64,000 bases of DNA, taken from Candidatus Micrarchaeota archaeon (lineage in GTDB: Archaea; Micrarchaeota; Micrarchaeia; Anstonellales; Bilamarchaeaceae). A program made the translations under genes and the position numbers. Positions 23,485 through 45,214 of this stretch are shown piece after piece. Below the pieces are notes generated by a model, which saw only the letters and a list, made by a program, of their open reading frames with translations, had not been told where the DNA came from and made no database searches. The DNA is taken from contig JBFLVJ010000003.1 in NCBI GenBank assembly GCA_040758595.1, forward strand, positions 20,721-84,720, read 5' to 3'. Every line of letters begins with the position of its first letter. Position 1 is the stretch's first letter.

Positions 23485-23505
23485 TAGCAGGCAACTAAAC
23501 TCAAG

Positions 23506-23701
23506 GGCTCATAGCTCAGCTTGGTAGAGCGTCGGACTTTTACTGTCTCCGGTCTCGGGTTTCCGACAGAACGATGTATCGTTCTGTGGACCAGAGAAAT
23601 GCCCGGCATTTCTCCCGGTCCGGTTTCGTTAACGGAACCGGGAACGGGAAACTGGAAACACAAGAGATCCGCAGGTCGAGGGTTCGAATCCCTCTGAGCC
23701 C
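23506..23701 (+). tRNA. tRNA-Lys (anticodon UUU) interrupted by a 122-nt intron at canonical position 37/38 (intron 23544-23665). No encoded CCA
   Basis: 5' exon GGGCTCATAGCTCAGCTTGGTAGAGCGTCGGACTTTTA and 3' exon ATCCGCAGGTCGAGGGTTCGAATCCCTCTGAGCCCG. The acceptor stem GGGCTCA/TGAGCCC, D-stem GCTC/GAGC and T-arm GAGGG-TTCGAAT-CCCTC are all perfect. The intron contains several perfect hairpins. Confidence 0.8.
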
Positions 23702-23798
23702 GTTTTTGCTTCCGGTCTCCAGTTCCCGGTTTCGAGTTCTGGGTTTCGTGTTCCGGCTCCCGTCGTGACGCAGATTTTAAACGCTTTCCAGAGAAGAG

Positions 23799-30399: not shown

Positions 30400-32646
30400 A
30401 TGAAGACGCTAAGATTCCTCATCATGCTCCTCGCAGCGGTTTCCATGGCTTTCGCGGCCACCGATGACGAAAGGGCCATCAAGGTCCTCAAGAGCGCGGC
30501 CGGGCAGCTCGGCTGGTCCGATGCCATATCCACAGACGAGGACGACAACCTCGGCTCCGGCATAACATACACCATCTCGCCCATGGGGACCGGCAGCGAC
30601 GAGGATTTCCACGGCTCGATAACCGTTTTCTCGACCGATCAGGAGCCCGGGTTCTGGATCGGTTTCCTGGACGAGCAGCTGGACATGGATCGCAGCAGCT
30701 ATCAGGGCAGGGACGCGGTCATCAGCCGCTATGGCGAGAACTGCAATCCGACAGGACTGGTGAAGGTCATCAATGATATGGTGGTCGGCATATTCGAGAG
30801 CATGTTCGGCGAGTCCGATGAGGAGAACTGCGTTACCATGCACGGCGCGGTGATCTGGTCATGCGGCAAATACATGTTCGCCTCCAACGATGCCCGCTCT
30901 GACGAGGGCGGGGAGGAGGATGCCATCGCGGCCGCCCTTTACGCAGCGGCGCAGGAGGAAGGCCTTTGCGAATACGGGGACACGCTGGTCGTCATGGTGC
31001 AGACGCCTGACTCGGCAGGCTCGGACAGGCTCACCGAGCAGGTCACGCTCGCCCAGAAGGTCAACGAATATTACGGCGTCGTCTCATACGGCCAGTACCC
31101 GCCGTTCAAGTTCAGCTTCAAGGACGCGGACGGCACTAGAGGCCAGAACGACTGGCATACCCTCCAGACCACTATGGCCACGTTCAGGGGGGACGGGAAC
31201 AAGTTCGGGAACTTCGAGGAGGAGGCGGTCAAGGCCGTGTTCGACGGCACCGATGTGCCACAGGACCTCTATTTCGAGAGGATAGTGTTCGTCTATTCCG
31301 GGGCTCCATGGCAGACCGACCGCTCCAAGCCGTTCTATGACGCCTGCGATTGGAAGAAGGACAGCGACTATATCGAGGCGGACGCAACCCAGGGGAAGCG
31401 CAAGATATACTCCAAGAACTTCATCTTTTTGAGCGAGCAGAGCGCGCTCGGCCAGTGGGCCCACGAGTTCGGCCACTCGCTCCCCTCCAGATATACCGCC
31501 AGCGCTCCCAGGGATTTCGGCAGGATAGACGACCGCTACAGCTATGCTCCTTACCAGTATGGCGAGATATCCGACTGGGGGCTGATGGGCTATGGGGTGT
31601 GGTGGCCCAACGACGCCACTTCGCCGGTCCACATGTCGTCCTTCTCCAAGCAATCCGCGAAGTGGCTGGAATACGCATCCGCGTCCATCAATCAGACCTA
31701 TGTCATAACATCGCTAGAAGACATGCAGAAGGGCGACACCATACTCAGACTGGACGATCCACTCTCCGCTGACGCGGAGCACTATTATATCATCGAGGCG
31801 CGGGACCCGACGGCTTTCTTCGGAGCGCCGGAATCCGGCGTGGTAATATACAAAGTCGGCAAGAATGCCGGCTACCATACGGTCAACGCCCTCGCTCCCC
31901 AGACCGCGAGGACGAGCGCCACGAACGCGAAAGGCCGGAGCTACCAGCTTCCAACCCTCTATGATTCCGCAGGGGTAGGTTCTGTATACATAGATGTGCC
32001 GGCCAACTTCAAGGTCACCCTGCTGAGAGAAGGGGACAAATCATCCACTGTCAAGATAGAGGAGTTCTCCCCGGTGAATCTCGTAGGTGCGACCATCGGT
32101 GCCATCGGCGCCGGACTCGGAGCGCTCCCGGGCGTGAGCCCGGGCGTGAACGCCCCGCCTCCTGATTCCAAAGGGCCGAAGCCCGACATCGATCTCCATG
32201 CCTATGACTCGGCAGGCAACCATGTCGGTATGGACTACCAGATCGGAGAATATGAGATAGACATCCCGGGCGCCATAGCCTCTGGGGACCTTGCGGACGA
32301 TTCCGAGTGGATATTCGTCCCTGAGGGCACCGATGTGAGGTATGAAGTGTCGGCCTATGACATGCAGCGGTTCCTCGCAGAGAACCCTGCGTTCGTTTCT
32401 GTGGCGAAACCGCAGGAATACACCGCCACTGCCGTGAAGTTCGATTCCAAGGGCGAGCGCTACGAAGCCGACCTCGGCACCGGCTCTGCCGCTGCCGGCC
32501 AGACGGTCCAGGTCAGGAGCCCTGCCGATCCATCGCTCCAGTACGTCCAGAGAGATGTTTCCGGTTTCGGGAACAACAGCATCTGTCCGCTGGTGCCTGC
32601 ATCGGTGCTGGGCATCCTGCTGCTGGCCGCCCGGAAAAAATCGTGA
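30400..32646 (+). CDS. Secreted zinc metalloprotease (HExxH; M6/InhA-like) with a C-terminal membrane anchor
   Basis: Signal peptide. WAHEFGHSLPSRY resembles the InhA HEFGH..P..Y motif. A Gly-rich linker is followed by the C-terminal SGFGNNSICPLVPASVLGILLLAARKKS, which is a PGF-CTERM-like TM plus basic tail. Confidence 0.5.
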   Translation: MKTLRFLIMLLAAVSMAFAATDDERAIKVLKSAAGQLGWSDAISTDEDDNLGSGITYTISPMGTGSDEDFHGSITVFSTDQEPGFWIGFLDEQLDMDRSSYQGRDAVISRYGENCNPTGLVKVINDMVVGIFESMFGESDEENCVTMHGAVIWSCGKYMFASNDARSDEGGEEDAIAAALYAAAQEEGLCEYGDTLVVMVQTPDSAGSDRLTEQVTLAQKVNEYYGVVSYGQYPPFKFSFKDADGTRGQNDWHTLQTTMATFRGDGNKFGNFEEEAVKAVFDGTDVPQDLYFERIVFVYSGAPWQTDRSKPFYDACDWKKDSDYIEADATQGKRKIYSKNFIFLSEQSALGQWAHEFGHSLPSRYTASAPRDFGRIDDRYSYAPYQYGEISDWGLMGYGVWWPNDATSPVHMSSFSKQSAKWLEYASASINQTYVITSLEDMQKGDTILRLDDPLSADAEHYYIIEARDPTAFFGAPESGVVIYKVGKNAGYHTVNALAPQTARTSATNAKGRSYQLPTLYDSAGVGSVYIDVPANFKVTLLREGDKSSTVKIEEFSPVNLVGATIGAIGAGLGALPGVSPGVNAPPPDSKGPKPDIDLHAYDSAGNHVGMDYQIGEYEIDIPGAIASGDLADDSEWIFVPEGTDVRYEVSAYDMQRFLAENPAFVSVAKPQEYTATAVKFDSKGERYEADLGTGSAAAGQTVQVRSPADPSLQYVQRDVSGFGNNSICPLVPASVLGILLLAARKKS

Positions 32647-36169: not shown

Positions 36170-37228
36170 TTGCCGCTTTTGATTGGCATGGAAAAGATGC
36201 AGTCAGTCTGGAAGACCACTTCAGGGGAGGGGCTCGAGATAAAGGAGGCCCCGGTACCCAAGATAAAAGACAACGAGGTCCTCATCAAGGTCAAGGCGAC
36301 CTCCATCTGCGGCACCGACATCCACATCTACAAGTGGGATGCCTGGGCCCAGCAGAGGATCGGCAAGAACATACCGTATATCTTCGGCCATGAGGTCTCT
36401 GGAGAGATCGTCGAGATGGGAAAGGACGTGAAAGGGCTCTCTATCGGCGACCATGTCTCTGCCGAGACGCACATATCCTGCGGCTACTGCCAGCAGTGCA
36501 AGACCGGCCAGGAGCACATCTGCCAGAACGTCAAGATACTGGGCGTGGACACCAACGGCACCTTCGCGGAATATCTCGCCCTGCCATACAGGAACGCCTG
36601 GGTCAACGACAAGAAGATCCCCCACTGGGTGGCAACGGCCCAGGAGCCTTTGGGCAATGCCGTCCACACCGTCTTCGACGGCGAAGTGGCCGGCAAGACC
36701 GTGACGGTCTTCGGCATGGGCCCTATCGGCGTCTGCGCGGTGAAGCTCTGCAAGCTCGCAGGGGCCGACAAGGTCATCGCGGTGGATCACCATGAAGGCA
36801 GGCTCAGGTTCGGCAAGGATTTCGGCGCCGACATCACTATACAGAGCGGCGACGGGAAAGATGTGCGCAAACAGATACTGGACGCCACCGATGGCTTCGG
36901 GGCCGACGTGTTCCTTGAGATGGCCGGAGCGCCTGCGGCGATGCAGGACGGCCTGGCGACACTCAAGGCCGGTGGAAGGGCGTCTATACTGGGCGTATTC
37001 CCGAAGCCGTTCGAAGTGGACGTCACCAACGACATCGTGTTCAAGGGCATAAGACTGGGCGGCATCAACGGAAGGAAGATGTTCGACACCTGGTACAAGG
37101 CCAAATCGTTCCTGCCAAAGATGGGCCTGGAGAAGCTGGTCACCCACAGGATGAAGCTCAGCGAGATCGAGAAAGGGTTCGACGTCCTGTTGAGGCGCGA
37201 AGGGATGAAGGTCGTCCTGGAGCCATAG
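36170..37228 (+). CDS. tdh: L-threonine 3-dehydrogenase (Zn-dependent MDR family)
   Basis: The GHEVSGEIVEMG catalytic zinc motif, the structural zinc Cys cluster CGYCQQC and the Rossmann motif GMGPIG are present. Confidence 0.75.
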   Translation: MPLLIGMEKMQSVWKTTSGEGLEIKEAPVPKIKDNEVLIKVKATSICGTDIHIYKWDAWAQQRIGKNIPYIFGHEVSGEIVEMGKDVKGLSIGDHVSAETHISCGYCQQCKTGQEHICQNVKILGVDTNGTFAEYLALPYRNAWVNDKKIPHWVATAQEPLGNAVHTVFDGEVAGKTVTVFGMGPIGVCAVKLCKLAGADKVIAVDHHEGRLRFGKDFGADITIQSGDGKDVRKQILDATDGFGADVFLEMAGAPAAMQDGLATLKAGGRASILGVFPKPFEVDVTNDIVFKGIRLGGINGRKMFDTWYKAKSFLPKMGLEKLVTHRMKLSEIEKGFDVLLRREGMKVVLEP

Positions 37229-38264
37229 AGTGGTAGGTGCCTCTTTTCCCTCGCTTTACTGGCGGCAAGGGCTCTCCCTCGCTCAGAATGTCCTTCTTTT
37301 TGTGAAATGCTACCGATTCGGCCATCTGCCGATAGAACCTAGCCGCCTCCTTCTTGCGCTGCTTTGCCTCGTTTTTATCATCTGCCTCGGCCACGAACCG
37401 GCGCAGCGTTCCCTCGATATCATCCATGGGTATCTCGCTGTTCGAAGCCAGGTTCCGCAATGTCACCTGCGCCATGTATCTCTTCTGGAGCGATGGGGAT
37501 AGGAGCGCTTCCATCACTGGAGGCACCGCCTTCGGGCCTAATCTCGGCAAGGATCTGGATGCTTCATCAACTACCCTGTTCTCAGGGTCATCGAGCATCC
37601 CTATCAGCGCATCTATGGCCCGTTCATCATCGAATGTGCCCAGCTCCCTCGCGATGTTCGCCTTGGCCCACATCATCTGTCCTGGGATGGACGCGATTAT
37701 CGCCGGGAGCGGGTCGCAGCGGAGCTTCTTCAACGCCGCGAAAGCGGCGTCCACCACGCAGCTCCTCCCCGCGCTGCCGTCATTGGTGTCACCGATCCGT
37801 TTTATCAGCGCATCCATGGCGGCAGGGTCTCCGATTTTACCCAGTAGCGTCACCGCTATCTCGCGTATGTTGCTGTGGATGCTGTCCGTGGATTCCATCA
37901 AAGGCCCGACCGCCCCCTTGCCCATCGCCAGGATGTCATCATCGCGTTTCAGCATGAGCAGGCAGAGCACCCGGTCATTATCATCCAGGCCATCGAACTC
38001 CCTGTTGAAGAAATGCTTCGCTGAAGCTTCTCCTATGAAGTAATGCGGGTCTCTCAGGAGCGGCCTGAACTTGCCGGATGCCTTCGGGTCATCTATCCTT
38101 GAGAGGATGTCTATGCAGTCTATGTTTCCCCTCCTTATCTGTTCGACCAGCGGAGAGAGCGCTGATGCCCCGAGCGCGGCGAGCCTGTCTTTGGTTTCCT
38201 GGCTGACAAACGGCTCCAGCTTCTTTATCAGCCTCTTCGCTCTCCACTCCCCGAACCAGCTCAT
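37158..38264 (-). CDS. HEAT-repeat protein A (PBS-lyase-type HEAT repeats) with a basic C-terminal tail
   Basis: Repeated AIDALIxxLxDxxxxVRxxA units. The C-terminus is ...ILSEGEPLPPVKRGKRGTY.... It is the last gene of the HEAT/AAA/vWA operon. Confidence 0.6.
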   Translation of the reverse strand: MSWFGEWRAKRLIKKLEPFVSQETKDRLAALGASALSPLVEQIRRGNIDCIDILSRIDDPKASGKFRPLLRDPHYFIGEASAKHFFNREFDGLDDNDRVLCLLMLKRDDDILAMGKGAVGPLMESTDSIHSNIREIAVTLLGKIGDPAAMDALIKRIGDTNDGSAGRSCVVDAAFAALKKLRCDPLPAIIASIPGQMMWAKANIARELGTFDDERAIDALIGMLDDPENRVVDEASRSLPRLGPKAVPPVMEALLSPSLQKRYMAQVTLRNLASNSEIPMDDIEGTLRRFVAEADDKNEAKQRKKEAARFYRQMAESVAFHKKKDILSEGEPLPPVKRGKRGTYHSMAPGRPSSLRASTGRRTLSRSR

Positions 38265-38704
38265 CTGACTACCTTCCTGTATATATCCGGCCAGTTCTTT
38301 CCGGTCTTTCTGGGCGCCTTCACGGTACCTTCGGCAAGCATGCCATCCACCGGCATCAATGGCCTTTTCGAGCCGCTAAAAACCTTCGCTATCTTCATAT
38401 AAGTCAGCGTCGCCCAGCCTATCGCATCCTGAACCTCATTCCCAGTCCCCGAACCCTTCACTTCGCTACAGTATCCTCTCAGCGTTTCTGCAATCCTTGG
38501 AAGGTCGATATCAGAAGATTCGGCTAGTCTGATTAGCAGCCAAGCAGCCGTGACCGCGACCCCTTCATCGTTATCCCTCAAGGTTTCTATCAAGGCAGGC
38601 ACAACCCTGGCGCCCTCCATCCCGGCGAGCCTCCTGGCAGCATCTCTTCTTTCTGCGGCATCCTGGCTTTTCAGCTGTGCTATCAGCCGCTCGACGTTAT
38701 CCAT
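38261..38704 (-). CDS. HEAT-repeat protein B with the conserved C-terminal tail motif
   Basis: Contains ERRDAARRLAGMEGARVVPALIETLRDNDEGV HEAT units. The tail is DGMLAEGTVKAPRKTGK. It overlaps neighbours by 4 and 8 nt. Confidence 0.6.
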   Translation of the reverse strand: MDNVERLIAQLKSQDAAERRDAARRLAGMEGARVVPALIETLRDNDEGVAVTAAWLLIRLAESSDIDLPRIAETLRGYCSEVKGSGTGNEVQDAIGWATLTYMKIAKVFSGSKRPLMPVDGMLAEGTVKAPRKTGKNWPDIYRKVVR

Positions 38705-39428
38705 AAACGACCCTCAATACCCTGTACGTCCGTGGCTTCCGGGGCGCCTTCACGGTTCCTTCGGACAGGACTCCACCCCTAGAGAGCCGCTTCTTCCTCT
38801 CAGCGACCTTGGCCGCGATGTCCCGATATATCTCTCCGATTGACATGCGCACCTCCTCACGCTCGTCTTTAGATGCATCCGAAGCCCACCCATTCAGAGC
38901 TTCCCCAACATCATCAAGCGGGATATCGTGCTTTTGCGCCAGCGTCATGAGCGCCCTGGAGGCTATCCAGGGGAGCGCGTTCTTTCCGTTGCCCAGAGCC
39001 TCTATGAACACCGGCACGGCCCTGGCCCCGAACTTCAGCAGGCCCTCCTTGGCTTCGTTCTGGACATCCATGCTCTCATCGCCCATCGCCTCTGCCAGCG
39101 CCGGGATGGCTTTCTCGTCTTTCATGGCGCCCAGTGCCTTGACCAAGGCTATTTTGACTTCACTATCCTCCTCCTTTTCCAGCGCCGCTATCAATCCCGG
39201 GACAGCGCTCTTGTCGCGCATAGTCCGCAAGGCGTTGGCGGCGGTGCTCCTGACATCGAAAGACGGATCCGATAGCGCGGCTACAAGGTCCGGTATGGTC
39301 TCCGGATCGCATATCTGGCCCAAGCGCCGGGCAGCGCTCCGTCTCGCCTTCGGGTTCGGATGCGTTCTAATATCCATCACATGGGCACGTGTCTCATCAT
39401 CCATTGCGTACCCTCCTTCTTCCGGCAT
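38697..39428 (-). CDS. HEAT-repeat protein C with the conserved C-terminal tail motif
   Basis: About 5 HEAT units. The tail is RGGVLSEGTVKAPRKPRTYRVLRVVYG. Confidence 0.6.
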   Translation of the reverse strand: MPEEGGYAMDDETRAHVMDIRTHPNPKARRSAARRLGQICDPETIPDLVAALSDPSFDVRSTAANALRTMRDKSAVPGLIAALEKEEDSEVKIALVKALGAMKDEKAIPALAEAMGDESMDVQNEAKEGLLKFGARAVPVFIEALGNGKNALPWIASRALMTLAQKHDIPLDDVGEALNGWASDASKDEREEVRMSIGEIYRDIAAKVAERKKRLSRGGVLSEGTVKAPRKPRTYRVLRVVYG

Positions 39429-39936
39429 GATACATGGCCGGTTTCTTCGGCGGCTTCACGGTCCCTTTGGAAAGGAGCCCGCCCTTCGGCATGCCCGCTT
39501 TCCTGGTATTTGCTGCCCTCAAGTATATCTCAAGAGCGAATTCGTGCGCGAGTTTGGCGGTCTCAGCACCCTCCTCTCGTCTCACCACATCGACGAATCT
39601 TTTCAGCGGCCCAGCAATCTTTGCCGGATCGATATCGCCGTTTCCGGCGAGCGTTGAAACGATATCCATGATGACCACCCTGGATTCCTTCTCGCAGTCT
39701 TGCAAGGCATCTATTAGGGATGGCAAGGCTTCGCTGCTTCCGAGATTCCTCAGCACCTGTATGGCGCTGTCCCTCACTTCCCGGTCCGGGTCCTTCAGAA
39801 GAGCCGCTATGGCAAGCACTACCTCTTTATCCTCCCTGCTCCCGAGTCTCTCCAATGCCCGGATGGCGAAAATCCTCACATGTTTATCAGGATCGTTCAG
39901 GACTTTGAAATTGATGTCTTCATCCATGCATCTCAC
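39397..39936 (-). CDS. HEAT-repeat protein D with the conserved C-terminal tail motif
   Basis: HEAT units. The tail is KGGLLSKGTVKPPKKPAMYHAGRRRVRNG. Its start overlaps the vWA gene stop by 4 nt. Confidence 0.6.
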   Translation of the reverse strand: MRCMDEDINFKVLNDPDKHVRIFAIRALERLGSREDKEVVLAIAALLKDPDREVRDSAIQVLRNLGSSEALPSLIDALQDCEKESRVVIMDIVSTLAGNGDIDPAKIAGPLKRFVDVVRREEGAETAKLAHEFALEIYLRAANTRKAGMPKGGLLSKGTVKPPKKPAMYHAGRRRVRNG

Positions 39937-42212
39937 CTCAGCTTGTTCGCCATCCTCCGGTAATATCTCTCGAAGAAATGGTGCAGCCTGCCGTCCGCCA
40001 CATCCCTCTTGGAGACTATCAGATAGTTGCCTATCCCGAAAATCCGGTCGAAATACGGCATCATCTTCGTTTCCGGGAACTCCGGGCTGGTTATCCCGAT
40101 GCCGAACACCTTTACCCGGTCGCGCTTCCAGGCTTCGTCCACTGCCCGGGCGGCATCCTCAAGAGGGGACTTCCCCACGTTGGCCTCTCCATCGGTTATC
40201 AGGAACACCTGCTTGTGGCCCTTGTGCCTGATCCCCCGCTCCTTCATCCTGAAGCACATGTGGCGCAGCGGCCCTCCTACGGGTGTGCCTCCGCCGGCAT
40301 CGCTGCCCCGTATCTCATTATCCTGCGCCCCTTTCATGAGTATGAACTCTTCGGTATCCCCGGATGTGAATCCAGCCACGATAAGAGGGTCCTTGAGCGT
40401 CATGCTGGCGAGCCCCAGGATGCCGCAAGCCTGGAGTATCTCCCCTCGCATGTCTAGGGTGGAGTCGCTCAGGTCGATGAGCACTCCGGTGGCGACATCC
40501 CTCTCTTCATAGATGACGCGCGAATGGTAATCCCTGCCCGGGTTCCTCCCGTTCCGCACTTCTCTCATATACTCATCGAAGAGCTCGGGATCGACATCTC
40601 CGTCCTCAAGCCCTCTCACCAACATACCCTCTTTCGGGGCGAATTTCTTGAATATGGTCCTGATGCGCAAGGCCTCGGCCTCATCTATGAGGATGGGTTC
40701 TCCCTCTGCCTTGTTCTCTATTATCACATGCTCGGCTTTGGTCAGCTTCTCCCCGTCCCAGCCGTCGTAGCTGAACCTCTCGCCGCCCGGCTTGGTCTCA
40801 TCGCCGGTTCCATCCTTGGGCTCGCCTTGCTTCGGCTCCTGCTTCTTCGGTTTCGAGAAGATGCTCGGCCGGCCGGTCCTCGGTTCGGTATCGGATTCGC
40901 GGATGGAGAGCGGGAGGGAGGAGAGCGATCTTTTGAGTCCTTCGCCCTCCTTCCTGGCCCTCCGTTCGATCACAGTGTACGCCTTTATCGCGGCGTTCAT
41001 GGACGCGGTTCCGTCGGTATCCATCCCCCTTTCCATGGCATCGACATGTCCCGAGATGGAGGTGAAATCCTCTCTTATCCCTTCAGGCACTTCGTTCCTG
41101 GTCCTTCCTGCTATCGAGTACTGGAGGGTCGCTTCCAGCAGGCATCCGATGTCCTCTCCCTCGAGCGCCGCCCTCCTCTCGAAAAGCATGTCCGAGTTTC
41201 TTGCGTATGTGTTCCGCAATCCGGAAAGGTATTCCATGTTGTTCTGGTCCACCCTCCCGTCATCGATCCAGTTGTGCAGGCGGTAGAGCAGTTCGGGGAA
41301 CTCCACGAGCCTGCCGATATCCTCGAAATTGCGTATCTCTAAAGTCTCACCGCCTTTGGCTACCCGGATCACCACTCCGTCGTCATATCGCCTGCATCCC
41401 TGGTACTGCGCACCGAACGATCCGTAATCGAACACGTCCGGATGCATGTTGATGTCGAATGTCCTCCATTTGTGGTGGCCAACTTCGTGCCAGAAAGAGA
41501 CCAGGTAATCCTCCATGTTGGTCTCCCTCTCTTCCCAGGTGCCCACGTACGGGGCGATTGTCACCACGCCCTCCCTGTTGGTGGAGAAACTCCTGTCACT
41601 ACCTATCTCCACGACAGCATCGCCGCCTATCTCCATCTTGGCAAGCGCCCCGAAACCGAACTTTATCATGGCTTCCTCTGCCATCACGACCGAGGCATCC
41701 CATTCCTTGAGGTAGGTCTCGAACATGTCGTCGAAAATCAAAGCGGCTATCATCGATTCTTCGTCGTATTCGTTGAGCTCGTCGACGAACGGCTTCCAGA
41801 ATATGTTCTTGCCCATCACCGGAAGGTACTTGGATAGGAACAGGTCGCATGCGATATCGGAATGGAAATCCTCCACGGCCCTGCGCAGCTGGAACGCCCT
41901 CCAGTTGTCGTGCGAAAGCACCTGGGCCGCGTGCTTGAGCAGTTTCTCGGTGGTGAGCACCATGCCTGAAGAAGAAGCGTGCTGGAGCGCGGCCAGGTAT
42001 TCACGCAGGGTGGCCGAAGAATCGGTCGGGCTCCTGGAAGCGAGCTTCTCAAGGTCGGAGGCTGAGAGCTTCAGCTTCGGCACGGCGGCGCTGAGCATGG
42101 CCAGCAGGCCTTCTGCGCTCCGAGGTATCTCGTCCGGCTCCAGCTTCAGCCTGGCCGGTGGAGCCTTGCCGCCTAGTTCGGAGGGCTTCTTCGTCTTCCT
42201 CCGTGTCCCCAT
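39933..42212 (-). CDS. von Willebrand factor A domain protein, CbbO/NorD-like partner of the AAA+ ATPase (759 aa)
   Basis: The C-terminal vWA/MIDAS region is VFLITDGEANVG ... VKVFGIGI. The size matches CbbO. It sits directly downstream of the MoxR-class ATPase. An internal HEVGHHKW (HExxH) motif is noted. Confidence 0.6.
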   Translation of the reverse strand: MGTRRKTKKPSELGGKAPPARLKLEPDEIPRSAEGLLAMLSAAVPKLKLSASDLEKLASRSPTDSSATLREYLAALQHASSSGMVLTTEKLLKHAAQVLSHDNWRAFQLRRAVEDFHSDIACDLFLSKYLPVMGKNIFWKPFVDELNEYDEESMIAALIFDDMFETYLKEWDASVVMAEEAMIKFGFGALAKMEIGGDAVVEIGSDRSFSTNREGVVTIAPYVGTWEERETNMEDYLVSFWHEVGHHKWRTFDINMHPDVFDYGSFGAQYQGCRRYDDGVVIRVAKGGETLEIRNFEDIGRLVEFPELLYRLHNWIDDGRVDQNNMEYLSGLRNTYARNSDMLFERRAALEGEDIGCLLEATLQYSIAGRTRNEVPEGIREDFTSISGHVDAMERGMDTDGTASMNAAIKAYTVIERRARKEGEGLKRSLSSLPLSIRESDTEPRTGRPSIFSKPKKQEPKQGEPKDGTGDETKPGGERFSYDGWDGEKLTKAEHVIIENKAEGEPILIDEAEALRIRTIFKKFAPKEGMLVRGLEDGDVDPELFDEYMREVRNGRNPGRDYHSRVIYEERDVATGVLIDLSDSTLDMRGEILQACGILGLASMTLKDPLIVAGFTSGDTEEFILMKGAQDNEIRGSDAGGGTPVGGPLRHMCFRMKERGIRHKGHKQVFLITDGEANVGKSPLEDAARAVDEAWKRDRVKVFGIGITSPEFPETKMMPYFDRIFGIGNYLIVSKRDVADGRLHHFFERYYRRMANKLR

Positions 42213-42216
42213 CGCG

Positions 42217-43260
42217 CTAACCCCTTATGCCGTAGACGTCTGATGCCATCGTGGAAAGGGCGTTGACGGTCTCTCCGAAATCGGTCGTCATGGCGTTGAA
42301 GATGACCTGCCTTGCCGCATCTCCCGGGGAGAGCCCGGCGTTTATCGCCCTGACCGCGTTCACCAGCACCCTCGGAGAAGGCGCTTCGCTCAGATTGAGG
42401 AGCATGTTGCGCAGCCTGGCCTTTATCTGGACGGCATCGCTGTCGGTGGCCGGGATGGAGCTCCTTCTCTGCTGCTCCAGGAACACCCTGCAGAGTGATG
42501 CGCACATGGTGCATATCTTCTCCGCGCTCTTTGCGTCATTGACATCCCCCACATTCGCTCTCACGATGTCGAGGAGCCTTCCGGCATCGGTCACCATCTC
42601 CAGCTCTATGGTCGCGAGCCTCTGCCTCATGGCCGGGGATATCCTGTCGATGCCTCCGTCATAATACGGGTTGAGCGCGAACACCACCACCGTCTCTGGG
42701 TTCAGCCTATATACCTCGCCCACACCCAGGTGGTCGCTGAGGTTGACCTCCCTTTCGTTGACAAGCGGGTAGAACAGGCCGTCCATGTCTCTCCTGAGCT
42801 TGTGCAGCTCATCGATGAAAAGCACCACTGGTTCCCCGGACAGCCCGGCGACTGAGATGTTCGAGGGCCTGAACTGCTGGAAATGCGATGTGGTCGCTTC
42901 TCCCTCCTCCTTCAGCGTGACCACGAACATGTCGGTGCGGCCCATCATCTTGGTCTCGGTCTTGTCCGGATCGCAGGTGGTATAAAGGAAGGGCAGCCCC
43001 CACTTCTGGGCCATCCTTCGCACCAGCATGCTCTTGCCCACGCCTGTCGGCCCGACCAGCAGAACGGCGTTCCTGGTCTTGCGATAGACCTCCATGGCGG
43101 ACTCCTCGTTCTTCTGCTGGATGTAATCGATTTTCGGTTCCGGCTGGATTATCCTATCCTTGAGGCTCTCCACGAGGCTCTCTTTCCTCGGTATATATAT
43201 CCCGTTCTTCCCCCTCACATGGCCGTTTATCCGCTTCGGCGCTACTACTGTCGCTGGCAT
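42217..43260 (-). CDS. MoxR/CbbQ/NorQ-class AAA+ ATPase (AAA_5)
   Basis: Walker A is LLVGPTGVGKS and Walker B is VVLFIDELHK. It is a single AAA module of ~347 aa in the typical pairing with a vWA protein. Confidence 0.7.
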   Translation of the reverse strand: MPATVVAPKRINGHVRGKNGIYIPRKESLVESLKDRIIQPEPKIDYIQQKNEESAMEVYRKTRNAVLLVGPTGVGKSMLVRRMAQKWGLPFLYTTCDPDKTETKMMGRTDMFVVTLKEEGEATTSHFQQFRPSNISVAGLSGEPVVLFIDELHKLRRDMDGLFYPLVNEREVNLSDHLGVGEVYRLNPETVVVFALNPYYDGGIDRISPAMRQRLATIELEMVTDAGRLLDIVRANVGDVNDAKSAEKICTMCASLCRVFLEQQRRSSIPATDSDAVQIKARLRNMLLNLSEAPSPRVLVNAVRAINAGLSPGDAARQVIFNAMTTDFGETVNALSTMASDVYGIRG

Positions 43261-43275
43261 GGATTGTTCACCAGG

Positions 43276-43304
43276 ATAAAGAGTGTTTGGAAGTGTTTAT
43301 AAAT
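43276..43304 (-). promoter_or_regulatory. Promoter element copy 2 (ATAAAGAGTGTTTGGAAGTGTTTATAAAT, contains a TATA box) upstream of the AAA+ ATPase gene
   Basis: 27/29 identical to the element at 44711-44739. A TTTATAAA TATA-like box lies ~35 nt upstream of the ATG at 43260 on the minus strand. Confidence 0.55.
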
Positions 43305-43318
43305 GTGATTATTGACGG

Positions 43319-44035
43319 TTATTGGCGTGCTACTCTAAGGGCCCCCTTCGCGCTCCTGTAAATCACCTTCTTCGGTGGTTTTATCCTGCCTTCGAGCAGC
43401 ACCCCGTCCATCTGCTTGGATTTGGCGATACTATTCGCTATCGTCATATACGAAAACATGGCATCGCCCTTAAGCTCCCCCTTTTTTGCCAGATCTTTTT
43501 CTGCTTCATAGGCTGCCTTGAGCCGTCTTCGGGCTACGGAGAGGTCGACTTCAATGCCATCCTCGGCCATCGATCCAAGCACGCAGGCGATCGGGAACTG
43601 GATATCAGGGTAACGGAGAGCCTCCAATGAAGCATCCACAGCGAGCTCTCCGAGTTCCTTAAGTGCAGAAATCAAATATGCTTCTTGAAAGTCGCGATCG
43701 CTCTCCCGCAACAGCTGGATTATGCGCGGAATCAGGCTACTGTCGCCGGATTTTTTTATCATTTTCACAGCAATGGTGCGTACTTCCCATTCTGGATCTA
43801 TCAATGCCAGCACAAACTCAGGCAATATCCTGGGATCGGATAATTTTGACAACGCTATGGCCGAATTCGCCCTGACCCAAGGGTCGATATCCCGTAGATT
43901 TTTGATGAGCTGTTCCACTGCACGGGGACCTCCAATTTTTCCCAATCTGACGGCCGCGCGTACTTTTACAGCACGTTCGGTCTCGGATAATGGCATGGTG
44001 TTGAGCTGATTGATACAATAGTCTATTTCATCCAT
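43319..44035 (-). CDS. HEAT-repeat protein E with the conserved C-terminal tail motif
   Basis: HEAT units. The tail is MDGVLLEGRIKPPKKVIYRSAKGALRVARQ. Confidence 0.6.
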   Translation of the reverse strand: MDEIDYCINQLNTMPLSETERAVKVRAAVRLGKIGGPRAVEQLIKNLRDIDPWVRANSAIALSKLSDPRILPEFVLALIDPEWEVRTIAVKMIKKSGDSSLIPRIIQLLRESDRDFQEAYLISALKELGELAVDASLEALRYPDIQFPIACVLGSMAEDGIEVDLSVARRRLKAAYEAEKDLAKKGELKGDAMFSYMTIANSIAKSKQMDGVLLEGRIKPPKKVIYRSAKGALRVARQ

Positions 44036-44047
44036 GGAAAGCCCTCA

Positions 44048-44698
44048 TCATCTTCTGAGTCGCCTCCTTTCCTTGGCCTTCCCGTCATATCCGCGCGGCT
44101 TGGGCACGGTCCCGCCAGACAGGACCCCGCCATTCTGCATTTTCTGAGATACTGCTTTCGCTATCTTGAGATACGCCTCTTTTGCATCTTCCCTGGCCGA
44201 TGCATATTCCTCGCTGGTGCCGCTCATCTTCACGGAGAACGCACGCTTCCCGAGTGAATCCTCGACCGCGGAAAGGTCGATTTCAGCTATCTGAGCGAGT
44301 TTGAAGAGAGCTTCAGCAGCGTGCCATCGCACCCCGTCATCCTCATCTCTGAGGGCGCCGATAAGCGCAGGGACGGGACGGCTATCCTTCATCTCGCCGA
44401 GCGACTCCGCAGCCGCACTCCTGAAACCTGCTTCCCTGTCCCCGAGCATCTCGATCAGCGCCGGCACCGCTCTGGAGAACAGCTCGTTCTCTCCGCTCTT
44501 CTCAGCGATCCATCCTATGGCTATGGCGGCCTTCCACCTAGCATCCGGATTGTCGCTTTCCAACGCATCCAAAAGGCGGGGCACTGCCGGCACGCCTATA
44601 TCTGCCAAATCGCTGACGGCCACCCGCCATCCGTTCTTGCATGATTTGGATATAATCCTCCTCACCCTGAGGTCGGCCAGCCATTCGGTGATGCTCAT
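44048..44698 (-). CDS. HEAT-repeat protein F with the conserved C-terminal tail motif
   Basis: HEAT units (PALIEMLGDREAGFRSAAAESLGEM ...). The tail is NGGVLSGGTVPKPRGYDGKAKERRRLRR. Confidence 0.6.
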   Translation of the reverse strand: MSITEWLADLRVRRIISKSCKNGWRVAVSDLADIGVPAVPRLLDALESDNPDARWKAAIAIGWIAEKSGENELFSRAVPALIEMLGDREAGFRSAAAESLGEMKDSRPVPALIGALRDEDDGVRWHAAEALFKLAQIAEIDLSAVEDSLGKRAFSVKMSGTSEEYASAREDAKEAYLKIAKAVSQKMQNGGVLSGGTVPKPRGYDGKAKERRRLRR

Positions 44699-44710
44699 AC
44701 AATCTCGATT

Positions 44711-44739
44711 ATAAAGAGTGTTTAGAAGTGATTATAAAT
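44711..44739 (-). promoter_or_regulatory. Promoter element copy 1 (ATAAAGAGTGTTTAGAAGTGATTATAAAT) upstream of HEAT-repeat gene F
   Basis: It has the same 29-nt element as at 43276-43304, with the TATA box ~37 nt upstream of the ATG at 44698. Confidence 0.55.
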
Positions 44740-44758
44740 AAATTTATTAGGAGCCAAG

Positions 44759-45214
44759 TCAGGGACTCTTGAAGATGCCGCCCTCGACCTCTTCCACGCC
44801 CACGACTTCCTTGAATTCCAGCGGGTGGAAGCTGTTGCCCTCCCATATCACGAGCACTTTGTTCCTGGACACCTTGGCGGCGAATATCACTTCCTCTCGC
44901 GAAGATAGGCGTTTCCCCAGCTCCTCCATCGCCCTCTCGCCCATCCCGGATAGCAGGTAATCCTTGACGCTGAGGAATGCGGTCTTGAGCTCCCCCGTCC
45001 GCTCTTTCCCTAGGACAAGGTTGAATCCCTTGATCACGCCCTCCTTCTTCATCTTGTTGAACCTGAGGTATGCGGTCGGCTTGGGGATGCCTATCATATC
45101 TGCCACTGTGGAGAGCGGGGTGCTGGCATCCTTCTTGAGTATCTCGATTATCTGTCTGTCTATCTCGTCCATCTGATTACCCTTTCCTGGAGGGGGCATA
45201 CGATAGTCTTTCAA
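44759..45214 (-). CDS. Lrp/AsnC-family transcriptional regulator (HTH + RAM domain)
   Basis: EIDRQIIEILKKDASTPLSTVADMIGIPKPTAYLRFNKMKKEGVIKG is an Lrp-type HTH. It lies directly upstream of, and co-directional with, the HEAT/AAA/vWA operon. Confidence 0.65.
   Translation of the reverse strand: MKDYRMPPPGKGNQMDEIDRQIIEILKKDASTPLSTVADMIGIPKPTAYLRFNKMKKEGVIKGFNLVLGKERTGELKTAFLSVKDYLLSGMGERAMEELGKRLSSREEVIFAAKVSRNKVLVIWEGNSFHPLEFKEVVGVEEVEGGIFKSP

Follow-up and report, generated by a model that had tools for sequence, protein, structure and literature searches.

A 64-kb stretch of DNA from a metagenome-assembled genome (MAG) of Candidatus Micrarchaeota (64,000 nucleotides of contig JBFLVJ010000003.1, assembly GCA_040758595.1; hereafter the window) encodes, on its minus strand, a MoxR-class AAA+ ATPase, a 759-amino-acid (aa) adaptor with a NorD-type von Willebrand factor A (vWA or VWA) domain, and six HEAT-repeat solenoid proteins that end in a common tail. 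The cluster belongs to the known MoxR AAA+/vWA remodelling systems; what is new is a predicted zincin-like domain in a NorD-type adaptor, a variable array of solenoids encoded in the same operon, and the putative C-terminal docking tail that these solenoids have in common. Taken together, these features suggest, with a probability that we place a little short of even, a motor/adaptor hub for guided remodelling or cleavage, to which interchangeable solenoids attach through their tails. To our knowledge, the choice of targets by MoxR-vWA systems is the main open question for this branch of the AAA+ proteins, clients being known for a handful of systems and rarely obvious from the genome. Because the operon encodes the presumptive partners of the hub, and because these carry a common short disordered tail, partner recognition is directly testable here; tail peptides, point mutants (D580 of the MIDAS, or metal-ion-dependent adhesion site, and E243 of the HExxH motif) and ATPase assays provide the handles. 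The HExxH domain and the conserved, predicted-disordered tail of the HEAT proteins, neither of them recognised in a preliminary description of this DNA, are the features most telling for mechanism.

The ATPase and Its NorD-Type Adaptor

The ATPase had been described as a member of the MoxR/CbbQ class, and profile searches bear this out. Its translation contains Walker A (GPTGVGKS) and Walker B (LFIDE) motifs and matches the Pfam families AAA_5 (3e-16, 60.1 bits; cut-off 22) and CbbQ_C (7.8e-6, 26.4 bits; cut-off 20.6), both above cut-off; its best matches in the PDB, at E values from 4e-13 to 6e-11, are CbbQ (6l1q, 3.9e-13; also 5c3c) and NorQ (9qh4, 4.8e-12). A conserved N-terminal extension of ~50 aa precedes these domains. 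Assignment to GvpN and a gas-vesicle locus was rejected: the ATPase scores 43.2 bits against an equivalog cut-off of 266.8 for TIGR02640, and no gvp genes occur in the loci.

The match of the 759-aa protein to Pfam VWA is below threshold; the VWA fold is confirmed by an AlphaFold2 model computed from an alignment of 22 family members (mean predicted local distance difference test score, pLDDT, 84.3). From its N-terminus, the model comprises a helical domain (residues 33-195), a three-stranded sheet (200-219), a helix (229-248), and further strands and helices to residue 430; then follow a disordered, charged linker (445-475), a long β-hairpin (478-501) and the VWA fold (529-759). Within the MIDAS, D580-x-S582-x-S584 and D674 do not vary across the family alignment, and the C-terminus, FFERYYRRMANKLR, is conserved, strongly so in the family pattern FFExYYRK..NKLR. 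When the family profile was compared with the PDB, NorD (9qhd_G) matched at 4.5e-8, covering only profile positions 473-735, and a whole-chain fold search ranked NorD best and the MIDAS region of MDN1 next; residues 1-470 are covered by no Pfam or NCBIfam family. The earlier designation of a CbbO/NorD-like vWA protein thus holds for the finger, the VWA domain and the MIDAS, which are NorD-like, but not for the N-terminal half, which is unrelated by sequence. In NorQD, the finger sits in the pore of the ATPase hexamer, the C-terminus touches the ATPase, and a twist of the VWA/finger unit relative to the N-domain, driven by ATP hydrolysis, has been proposed (PMC13036017); from its sequence and modelled structure, the AAA+/vWA pair described here may operate like NorQD or CbbQO.

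A Predicted Zincin-Like Domain in the Adaptor

The minimal zincin topology is a sheet, an HExxH helix and a second helix with acidic ligands. In the adaptor model, helix 229-248 holds the residues W-H-E-V-G-H-H-K-W, and a second conserved motif, N314-x3-D318-x-R320-x-D322, lies downstream on the next long helix (306-328). H242, E243 and H246, together with N314, D318, R320 and D322, are invariant in the 22 sequences, down to 20% identity. On these grounds the HExxH domain is predicted to be a zincin-like peptidase, which would give the NorD-type adaptor of this system an additional, peptidase-like module.

Relatives of this module were sought in several collections. Pfam MPTase-PolyVal gave weak matches for 4 of 20 isolated domains (best E value, 0.047), and the Pfam DUF2201_N/DUF2201 models, which we take to follow the same domain logic (a metallopeptidase_N domain with a VWA-like domain), matched none of the 22 adaptor family members at E<=1. 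No phage relatives were detected by viral search, in PHROGs, or by tblastn against 50,697 phage records.

The HEAT Solenoids and Their Common Tail

The six HEAT genes had been described as HEAT-repeat paralogs of the PBS-lyase type. They are indeed paralogs, 20-40% identical over the aligned solenoid, and HEAT_2 is found on all of them, but they are not generic HEAT proteins: they form one family with a common C-terminal module, composed of a final long helix (...Y..IA...), a basic patch, the sequence GG(V/L)LSEGTVK(A/P)P(R/K)K..(Y/F)(R/H), and a short basic terminus. The consensus of the tail in the window reads GGVLSEGTVKPPKK..Y/F-R, and its core is 51% identical among the six paralogs vs. 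27.5% for the solenoid. A hidden Markov model (HMM) of the tail, run over the window, finds exactly the six HEAT open reading frames (ORFs) and no other. In an AlphaFold2 model of HEAT-C, for which the alignment of the six window paralogs was the input, the body is a 12-helix solenoid (pLDDT, 87.1), and the tail (aa 219-243) has a pLDDT below 50. Conservation combined with predicted disorder, as seen in this tail, is a hallmark of short linear motifs for docking or recognition.

Tails of this kind extend beyond the window. The tail HMM matches 32 ORFs that are solenoid neighbours in the window and six other loci, and the conserved, basic tail is present on the six HEAT proteins of the window and on ~48 solenoid neighbours elsewhere. 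Clade-specific variants occur on every neighbour in L011, L014, L016 and L019: tails in L011 and L014 end in ...(V/M/I)FR followed by 8-14 residues, those of L016 read NGVVxESxKPxD(I/V)... on five of five partners, and those of L019 read FGVRD...RFERTAFPAR... on all seven. Each locus has one tail consensus, common to very different solenoids, as expected if all partners must fit the same receptor encoded at that locus. Most tails place an acidic residue between hydrophobic residues, a pattern that, judged from sequence, would suit capture of an extended peptide by the MIDAS; MIDAS-mediated capture has been proposed as a general mode for MoxR-vWA systems (PMC7159879). A tail-only profile search of a set of 5.8 billion proteins returned no match, not even the window's own proteins, and is uninformative on absence.

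In two solenoids, at 7819-8598 in L005 and 7626-9071 in L009, the tail is truncated before the final (F/Y)R box, the last residues being ...KLIIPGKKKRN and ...IEIKIDGAELP; these two could be copies in decay or variants that naturally lack the tail. Three other identities for the tail or the proteins that bear it were considered and rejected. As for an HbYX proteasome-docking motif, V-Y-G is the end of HEAT-C only; a secretion or sorting signal does not agree with the lack of signal peptides and transmembrane segments or with a tail that is basic, not hydrophobic; and in a phycobilisome (PBS) lyase operon the HEAT proteins would match CpcE/F or NblB, for which the best score is 52 bits against an equivalog cut-off of 330, only the generic HEAT_PBS repeat being common to both.

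Conservation Across Loci

A word search of the 5.8 billion proteins recovered only two other homologs of the vWA protein and 18 of the ATPase, all of the latter being singletons, from metagenomes or from MAGs, that carry the labels Micrarchaeota, Micrarchaeia or Aenigmatarchaeota. An exhaustive HMMER search with the vWA protein against 1.84 billion cluster representatives gave 24 proteins at <1e-30 and 460 at <1e-3, the distant matches being unnamed VWA or CobT_C-like proteins. When genome contigs were scanned with a three-sequence vWA alignment there was no match, and a broader alignment was needed; with this, 2 of 185,579 GTDB species representatives, both Micrarchaeia MAGs, were found to carry the system. 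A scan of metagenome contigs contributed two further short contigs. The preliminary description had aimed its neighbourhood comparison at Thermoplasmata and other archaea; the source MAG is labelled Candidatus Micrarchaeota archaeon, of the DPANN archaea, instead.

The linkage of HEAT genes to the ATPase/vWA pair, on which that description had staked its proposal, holds in all 11 independent loci long enough to judge: tailed solenoids, a MoxR ATPase and a vWA protein with HExxH co-occur in the window and in 10 further loci (Table 1), and the linkage is kept even at 20-22% vWA identity. Genomic surroundings vary by locus (a ribosomal protein operon, a sugar kinase, fibrillarin, and others). Chance does not explain the arrangement, which recurs in 11 of 11 examinable loci. 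Identity from locus to locus is 41-66% for the ATPase and 35-58% for the vWA protein. For the solenoids it is at most 25-40%, seldom passing 35-40% over partial alignments; the solenoids lack one-to-one orthologs, their best match often lies within their own locus, they range from 147 to 891 aa, and there are 1-11 copies per locus. The more distant locus L017, with a CbbQ-like ATPase, a 1132-aa VWA protein and no visible HEAT gene, marks the edge of the family. The cassette takes up ~8 kb in hosts whose genomes are very small, which suggests importance for the biology of DPANN archaea.

Two of the neighbourhoods adjoin ribosomal genes: in L003 (9253-14689) and L005 (14670-19608), both of them Micrarchaeia loci, the cassette is immediately next to SUI1 and the S3-L22-S19-L2-L23-L4-L3 ribosomal protein cluster. 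This adjacency, a matter of position only, may be of interest given the likeness of the MIDAS fold to that of Midasin, and inherited synteny is equally possible. Elsewhere, a fragment of the phage-integrase family (161 aa; L019, 9108-9593) and a ParE toxin gene (L007, 19649-19930) each directly follow the cassette, a hint that it may sit in variable or mobile regions.

Layout and Putative Regulation of the Cluster

All nine co-directional minus-strand ORFs reported earlier are present in the ORF listing, and the Pfam searches proposed for them identified HTH_AsnC on the Lrp-type regulator, AAA_5 and CbbQ_C on the ATPase, and HEAT_2 above its gathering score on six of six HEAT genes. Gene calls on identical public contigs (MAG GCA_049322935.1) match these ORFs, except that Lrp, HEAT-D and HEAT-C begin a little later; the Lrp start is placed at 45172, giving a protein of 137 aa. 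Overlaps of 4-8 nucleotides (nt), formerly ascribed to most junctions, are confined to the downstream half of the cluster (three or four of eight junctions), and the remaining junctions are gaps.

The two larger intergenic gaps, between Lrp and HEAT-F and between HEAT-E and the ATPase, contain one copy each of a promoter-like element of 38 nt, AATAA..TTTATAA.CACTTC(T/C)AAACACTCTTTAT in the form common to both. Its 20-nt core occurs exactly twice in the window vs. 0.01 times expected by chance, and the element includes an archaeal TATA-like box (TTTATAA) ~35 nt from each start codon. Because the same element precedes HEAT-F and the ATPase, the sequence points to two co-regulated transcripts, probably F-E and AAA+-vWA-D-C-B-A, and not to one nine-gene transcript. 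What remains of the single functional unit first proposed is the coupling of ATPase, vWA protein and HEAT proteins, which is supported; its expression as one transcript is not, there being probably two units, and Lrp falls outside. No Lrp gene lies beside the cassette in L003, L005, L007, L009, L011, L014, L016 or L019, and among the loci examined the two are adjacent in the window only. From its position, the element could be a candidate operator for the neighbouring Lrp protein.

Comparison with Known Systems

CbbQ/CbbO, a pair formed by a MoxR AAA+ and a VWA protein, is a RuBisCO activase. NorQ/NorD serves the insertion of iron into cNOR (PMC13036017). Both are resembled by the present system in an ATPase with AAA_5 and CbbQ_C, in an adaptor with linker, finger, VWA domain bearing a DxSxS-T-D MIDAS, and conserved C-terminus, and in adjacent genes, ATPase first (here with a 4-nt gap). 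The present system differs from them in the invariant HExxH of the adaptor N-terminal half, in the extra N-terminal segment of the ATPase (~50 aa), and in the 1-11 tailed solenoids that it encodes, which have no counterpart there. No client genes (norCB, cbbLS/cbbM, coxLMS) were found in the window or in L003, L005, L007, L009, L011, L014, L015, L016 or L019. Because the adaptor N-terminal half is unrelated and the client genes are absent from every locus, membership in a NorQD or CbbQO cassette fails, and NorQD or CbbQO proper was rejected. The preliminary description had allowed that the genes might prove to belong to a well-characterised cassette; they do not, there being no RuBisCO, nor, cox or gvp genes at the loci.

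Three further systems invite comparison. In group 2.2 jumbo phages, a MoxR ATPase paired with a metallopeptidase-vWA protein has been predicted, and processing of structural proteins proposed for it (Iyer et al., 2021; PMC7824862); the likeness is a MoxR ATPase encoded beside a vWA co-chaperone that is fused to an N-terminal HExxH domain, whereas no sequence similarity was detected and the phage systems are without the HEAT array. Midasin/Rea1, which acts in eukaryotic pre-60S maturation, likewise has an AAA_5-type motor, a MIDAS-domain loop that sits within the pore of the ring, a linker of low complexity and charged composition before the MIDAS, and capture of a partner by the MIDAS via an acidic residue; it is, however, a single chain of 5000 aa, its partners use ubiquitin-like (UBL) domains instead of C-terminal tails, and it has no peptidase domain. 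MoxR-vWA ternary conflict systems contain repeat proteins (TPR, HEAT, β-propeller) and an occasional metallopeptidase (Kaur et al., 2020; PMC7159879), and have in common with the cluster a MoxR-vWA core, repeat proteins and diversifying components; here the repeats are separate tailed genes and not vWA fusions, and the hosts are DPANN archaea as opposed to multicellular bacteria. An analogy of logic, with no homology, can be drawn to F-box/SCF systems, in which fast-evolving paralogs likewise combine a variable repeat with a small conserved dock onto one hub; the dock here would be a disordered C-terminal peptide and the hub an AAA+/vWA/zincin complex. Full-text literature searches found no description of the present arrangement.

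Proposed Mechanism and Alternative Explanations

We propose, tentatively, that the tail would be a short linear motif by which each solenoid docks on the adaptor, at the peptide-binding face of the MIDAS and/or in the zincin cleft; the N-terminal extension of the ATPase may be an alternative, less likely docking site. The variable solenoid bodies would then be interchangeable binding modules, so that a conserved dock is combined with a variable repeat receptor in the manner of F-box proteins. ATP hydrolysis could twist the finger/VWA unit, in NorQD fashion, and thereby remodel the bound partner, and the HExxH site would probably cleave the tail, the solenoids themselves, or a protein held by a solenoid. 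Expression may be coordinated through the element that precedes both HEAT-F and the ATPase. Carried further, this scheme would amount to an archaeal system of targeted remodelling or proteolysis, in which a zincin-bearing AAA+/vWA hub is programmed by fast-evolving solenoid receptors docking via a C-terminal motif; we consider that fuller claim unlikely as it stands. If true, it would provide a prokaryotic analogue of adaptor-guided SCF/F-box or p97/UBX machines, with which DPANN symbionts might target viral or host proteins or run quality control in a reduced proteostasis network.

Several observations weigh against the hub with docked solenoids. Profiles of the HExxH domain retrieved only His-tag artefacts from the PDB, and the domain has no significant match in Pfam or the PDB, for which reason we infer, and do not assign, a zincin-like peptidase; the whole-chain fold searches were dominated by the VWA domain, and HExxH may instead mark a site that handles metal. 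Not every tail has the acidic residue: HEAT-D and HEAT-F have none in the core. Normalised local scores within vs. between loci did not separate co-evolution of the tails from recent duplication or raise it beyond that of the solenoid bodies, and they were not used. All of the sequences, moreover, come from metagenomes.

The solenoids may alternatively be clients, with the MoxR-vWA-peptidase as an assembly or maturation chaperone that captures their tails, folds them or builds a larger scaffold from them, and trims the tail; we regard this as unlikely. The tail-assembly MoxR/vWA of Acidianus two-tailed virus offers a parallel. A shared tag for recognition or cleavage would fit the conserved, disordered tail that every partner carries, the catalytic Glu of HExxH is invariant, a precedent exists in the jumbo-phage MoxR and MPTase-vWA proteins with their proposed processing of structural proteins (PMC7824862), and superstructures built from repeat proteins have been noted for MoxR-vWA systems (Kaur et al., 2020; PMC7159879). 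Known MoxR-vWA clients, however, are conserved enzymes, whereas here there are 1-11 proteins of 147-891 aa per locus without orthology; the stoichiometric components of a single structure would not usually vary so much, and the search for phage relatives found none. The evolutionary pattern resembles adaptor or receptor families more than it does the conserved clients of known MoxR chaperones, and because a conserved hub and dock are combined with fast-changing repeat bodies, the reading of the solenoids as adaptors is tentatively favoured over that as clients.

Rapid divergence of the solenoids, their lineage-specific expansion and a copy number that varies beside a conserved core would also be expected of a biological-conflict system, in defence or between symbiont and host, of the MoxR-vWA ternary kind, in which the HEAT proteins would be sensors of invader or host proteins and the peptidase an effector switched on by the ATPase. 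Its rare and patchy distribution, the integrase fragment and the ParE toxin gene after the cassette in L019 and L007, and reports of HEAT repeats and, now and then, metallopeptidases from systems of this kind (PMC7159879) are in keeping with this explanation, which is nonetheless distinctly improbable: Pfam and PADLOC found no VMAP, EAD, caspase or trypsin components on the nine window proteins, PADLOC giving generic HEAT and P-loop matches and no specific one; the cassettes of L003 and L005 beside a ribosomal protein operon have a core-genome context; and the Kaur et al. systems are associated with multicellular bacteria and not with DPANN archaea.

Still more doubtful is a chaperone for insertion of a metal or cofactor, comparable to NorQD, CoxDEF and the chelatases, in which HExxH and Asp would hold a metal delivered to the HEAT proteins. 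The closest solved relatives, NorQ and NorD, do insert iron (PMC13036017), the HEAT proteins match repeats of the phycobilin-lyase type and so resemble a class of proteins with cofactor-handling roles, and the HExxH domain is without significant match to any peptidase family. Set against these, no metalloenzyme or cofactor biosynthesis genes occur in any locus, no metal site of His, Cys or Glu is conserved among the HEAT paralogs (their invariant positions are structural or lie in the tail), their matches to CpcE/F lyases are far below the family cut-offs, and HExxH with an invariant Glu after a β-sheet is the classic signature of a zincin protease. Fortuitous adjacency of ordinary stand-alone HEAT genes, conceivable in that archaea commonly encode HEAT_2 and HEAT_PBS proteins and Pfam sees generic repeats only, is effectively refuted by a linkage kept in 11 of 11 loci despite deep divergence and differing surroundings, by a family-specific tail on all partners, by gene overlaps of 4-8 nt, and by the duplication of the promoter element within the cluster.

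Other Features of the Window and of the Loci

The coordinates of the cluster, its junctions and the gene orders at the other loci are collected in Table 1.

Table 1. Genes, domains, promoter-like elements and junctions of the cluster in the window, and gene order at related loci.
Feature	Coordinates	Strand	Evidence or content
Lrp/AsnC-family regulator	44759-45214	(-)	Pfam HTH_AsnC-type 1.3e-10
HEAT-F, 216-aa solenoid, tailed	44048-44698	(-)	HEAT_2 3.9e-19; tail HMM 1e-15
HEAT-E, 238-aa solenoid, tailed	43319-44035	(-)	HEAT_2 1.7e-14; tail HMM 4.5e-16
MoxR-class AAA+ ATPase, NorQ/CbbQ type, 347 aa	42217-43260	(-)	AAA_5, CbbQ_C, PDB matches
NorD-like vWA adaptor, 759 aa	39933-42212	(-)	Sub-threshold Pfam VWA, structure model
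HEAT-D, 176-179 aa, tailed	39397-39936	(-)	HEAT_2 3.3e-15; tail HMM 7e-15
HEAT-C, 235-243 aa, tailed	38697-39428	(-)	HEAT_2 1.7e-27; AlphaFold2 model
HEAT-B, 147 aa, tailed	38261-38704	(-)	HEAT_2 6.9e-7; tail HMM 5e-18
HEAT-A, 368 aa, tail then longer basic extension	37158-38264	(-)	HEAT_2 2e-15; tail HMM 2e-16
Zincin-like region of adaptor (predicted), aa 196-345	41178-41627	(-)	HEVGH, aa 242-246, at 41475-41489
β-Hairpin finger of adaptor, aa 478-501	40710-40781	(-)	Model strands 478-485 and 490-501; aligns with NorD finger region
VWA domain of adaptor, aa 529-759	39936-40628	(-)	MIDAS D580-x-S582-x-S584, T643, D674
HEAT-C tail, aa 219-243	38700-38774	(-)	
Promoter-like element, copy 1, AATAA..TTTATAA..CACTTCTAAACACTCTTTAT	44711-44748	(-)	Ends 12 nt upstream of HEAT-F ATG
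Promoter-like element, copy 2	43276-43313	(-)	Ends 15 nt upstream of AAA+ ATG
Junction Lrp/F			Gap, 60 nt
Junction F/E			Gap, 12 nt
Junction E/AAA+			Gap, 58 nt
Junction AAA+/vWA			Gap, 4 nt
Junction vWA/D			Gap, 5 nt, or overlap, 4 nt, if GTG start
Junction D/C			Overlap, 8 nt
Junction C/B			Overlap, 8 nt
Junction B/A			Overlap, 4 nt
Locus L003			Two solenoids, AAA+, vWA, three solenoids
Locus L004			vWA, solenoid
Locus L005			Ten solenoids, AAA+, vWA, one solenoid
Locus L007			AAA+, vWA, four solenoids
Locus L009			AAA+, two solenoids, vWA, two solenoids
Locus L011			Solenoid, AAA+, vWA, two solenoids
Locus L014			AAA+, vWA, four solenoids
Locus L015			AAA+, vWA, 891-aa solenoid
Locus L016			vWA ~20% identical; architecture kept
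Locus L019			vWA ~22% identical; architecture kept

At one edge of the cluster, the 3' ends of HEAT-A and of a convergent gene for a zinc-type alcohol dehydrogenase (36170-37228, +) overlap over 71 nt (37158-37228); at the other, a gene for a KaiC/RecA-like ATPase (Pfam PF06745; 45290-46018, +), divergent from Lrp, adjoins the cassette. A second PF06745 ATPase gene lies ~3.4 kb upstream of the distant L016 cassette (L016, 3473-4576, -), and coincidence is possible. Elsewhere in the window, Rfam reports a tRNA (52 bits) that spans 198 nt at 23505-23702 (+), probably an intron-containing archaeal tRNA; ARAGORN finds none in the window. A 748-aa protein with no Pfam match on record is encoded at ~30400-32646 (+; 15169-17415 of L001), downstream of mevalonate-pathway genes (MVD-like, GHMP kinase).

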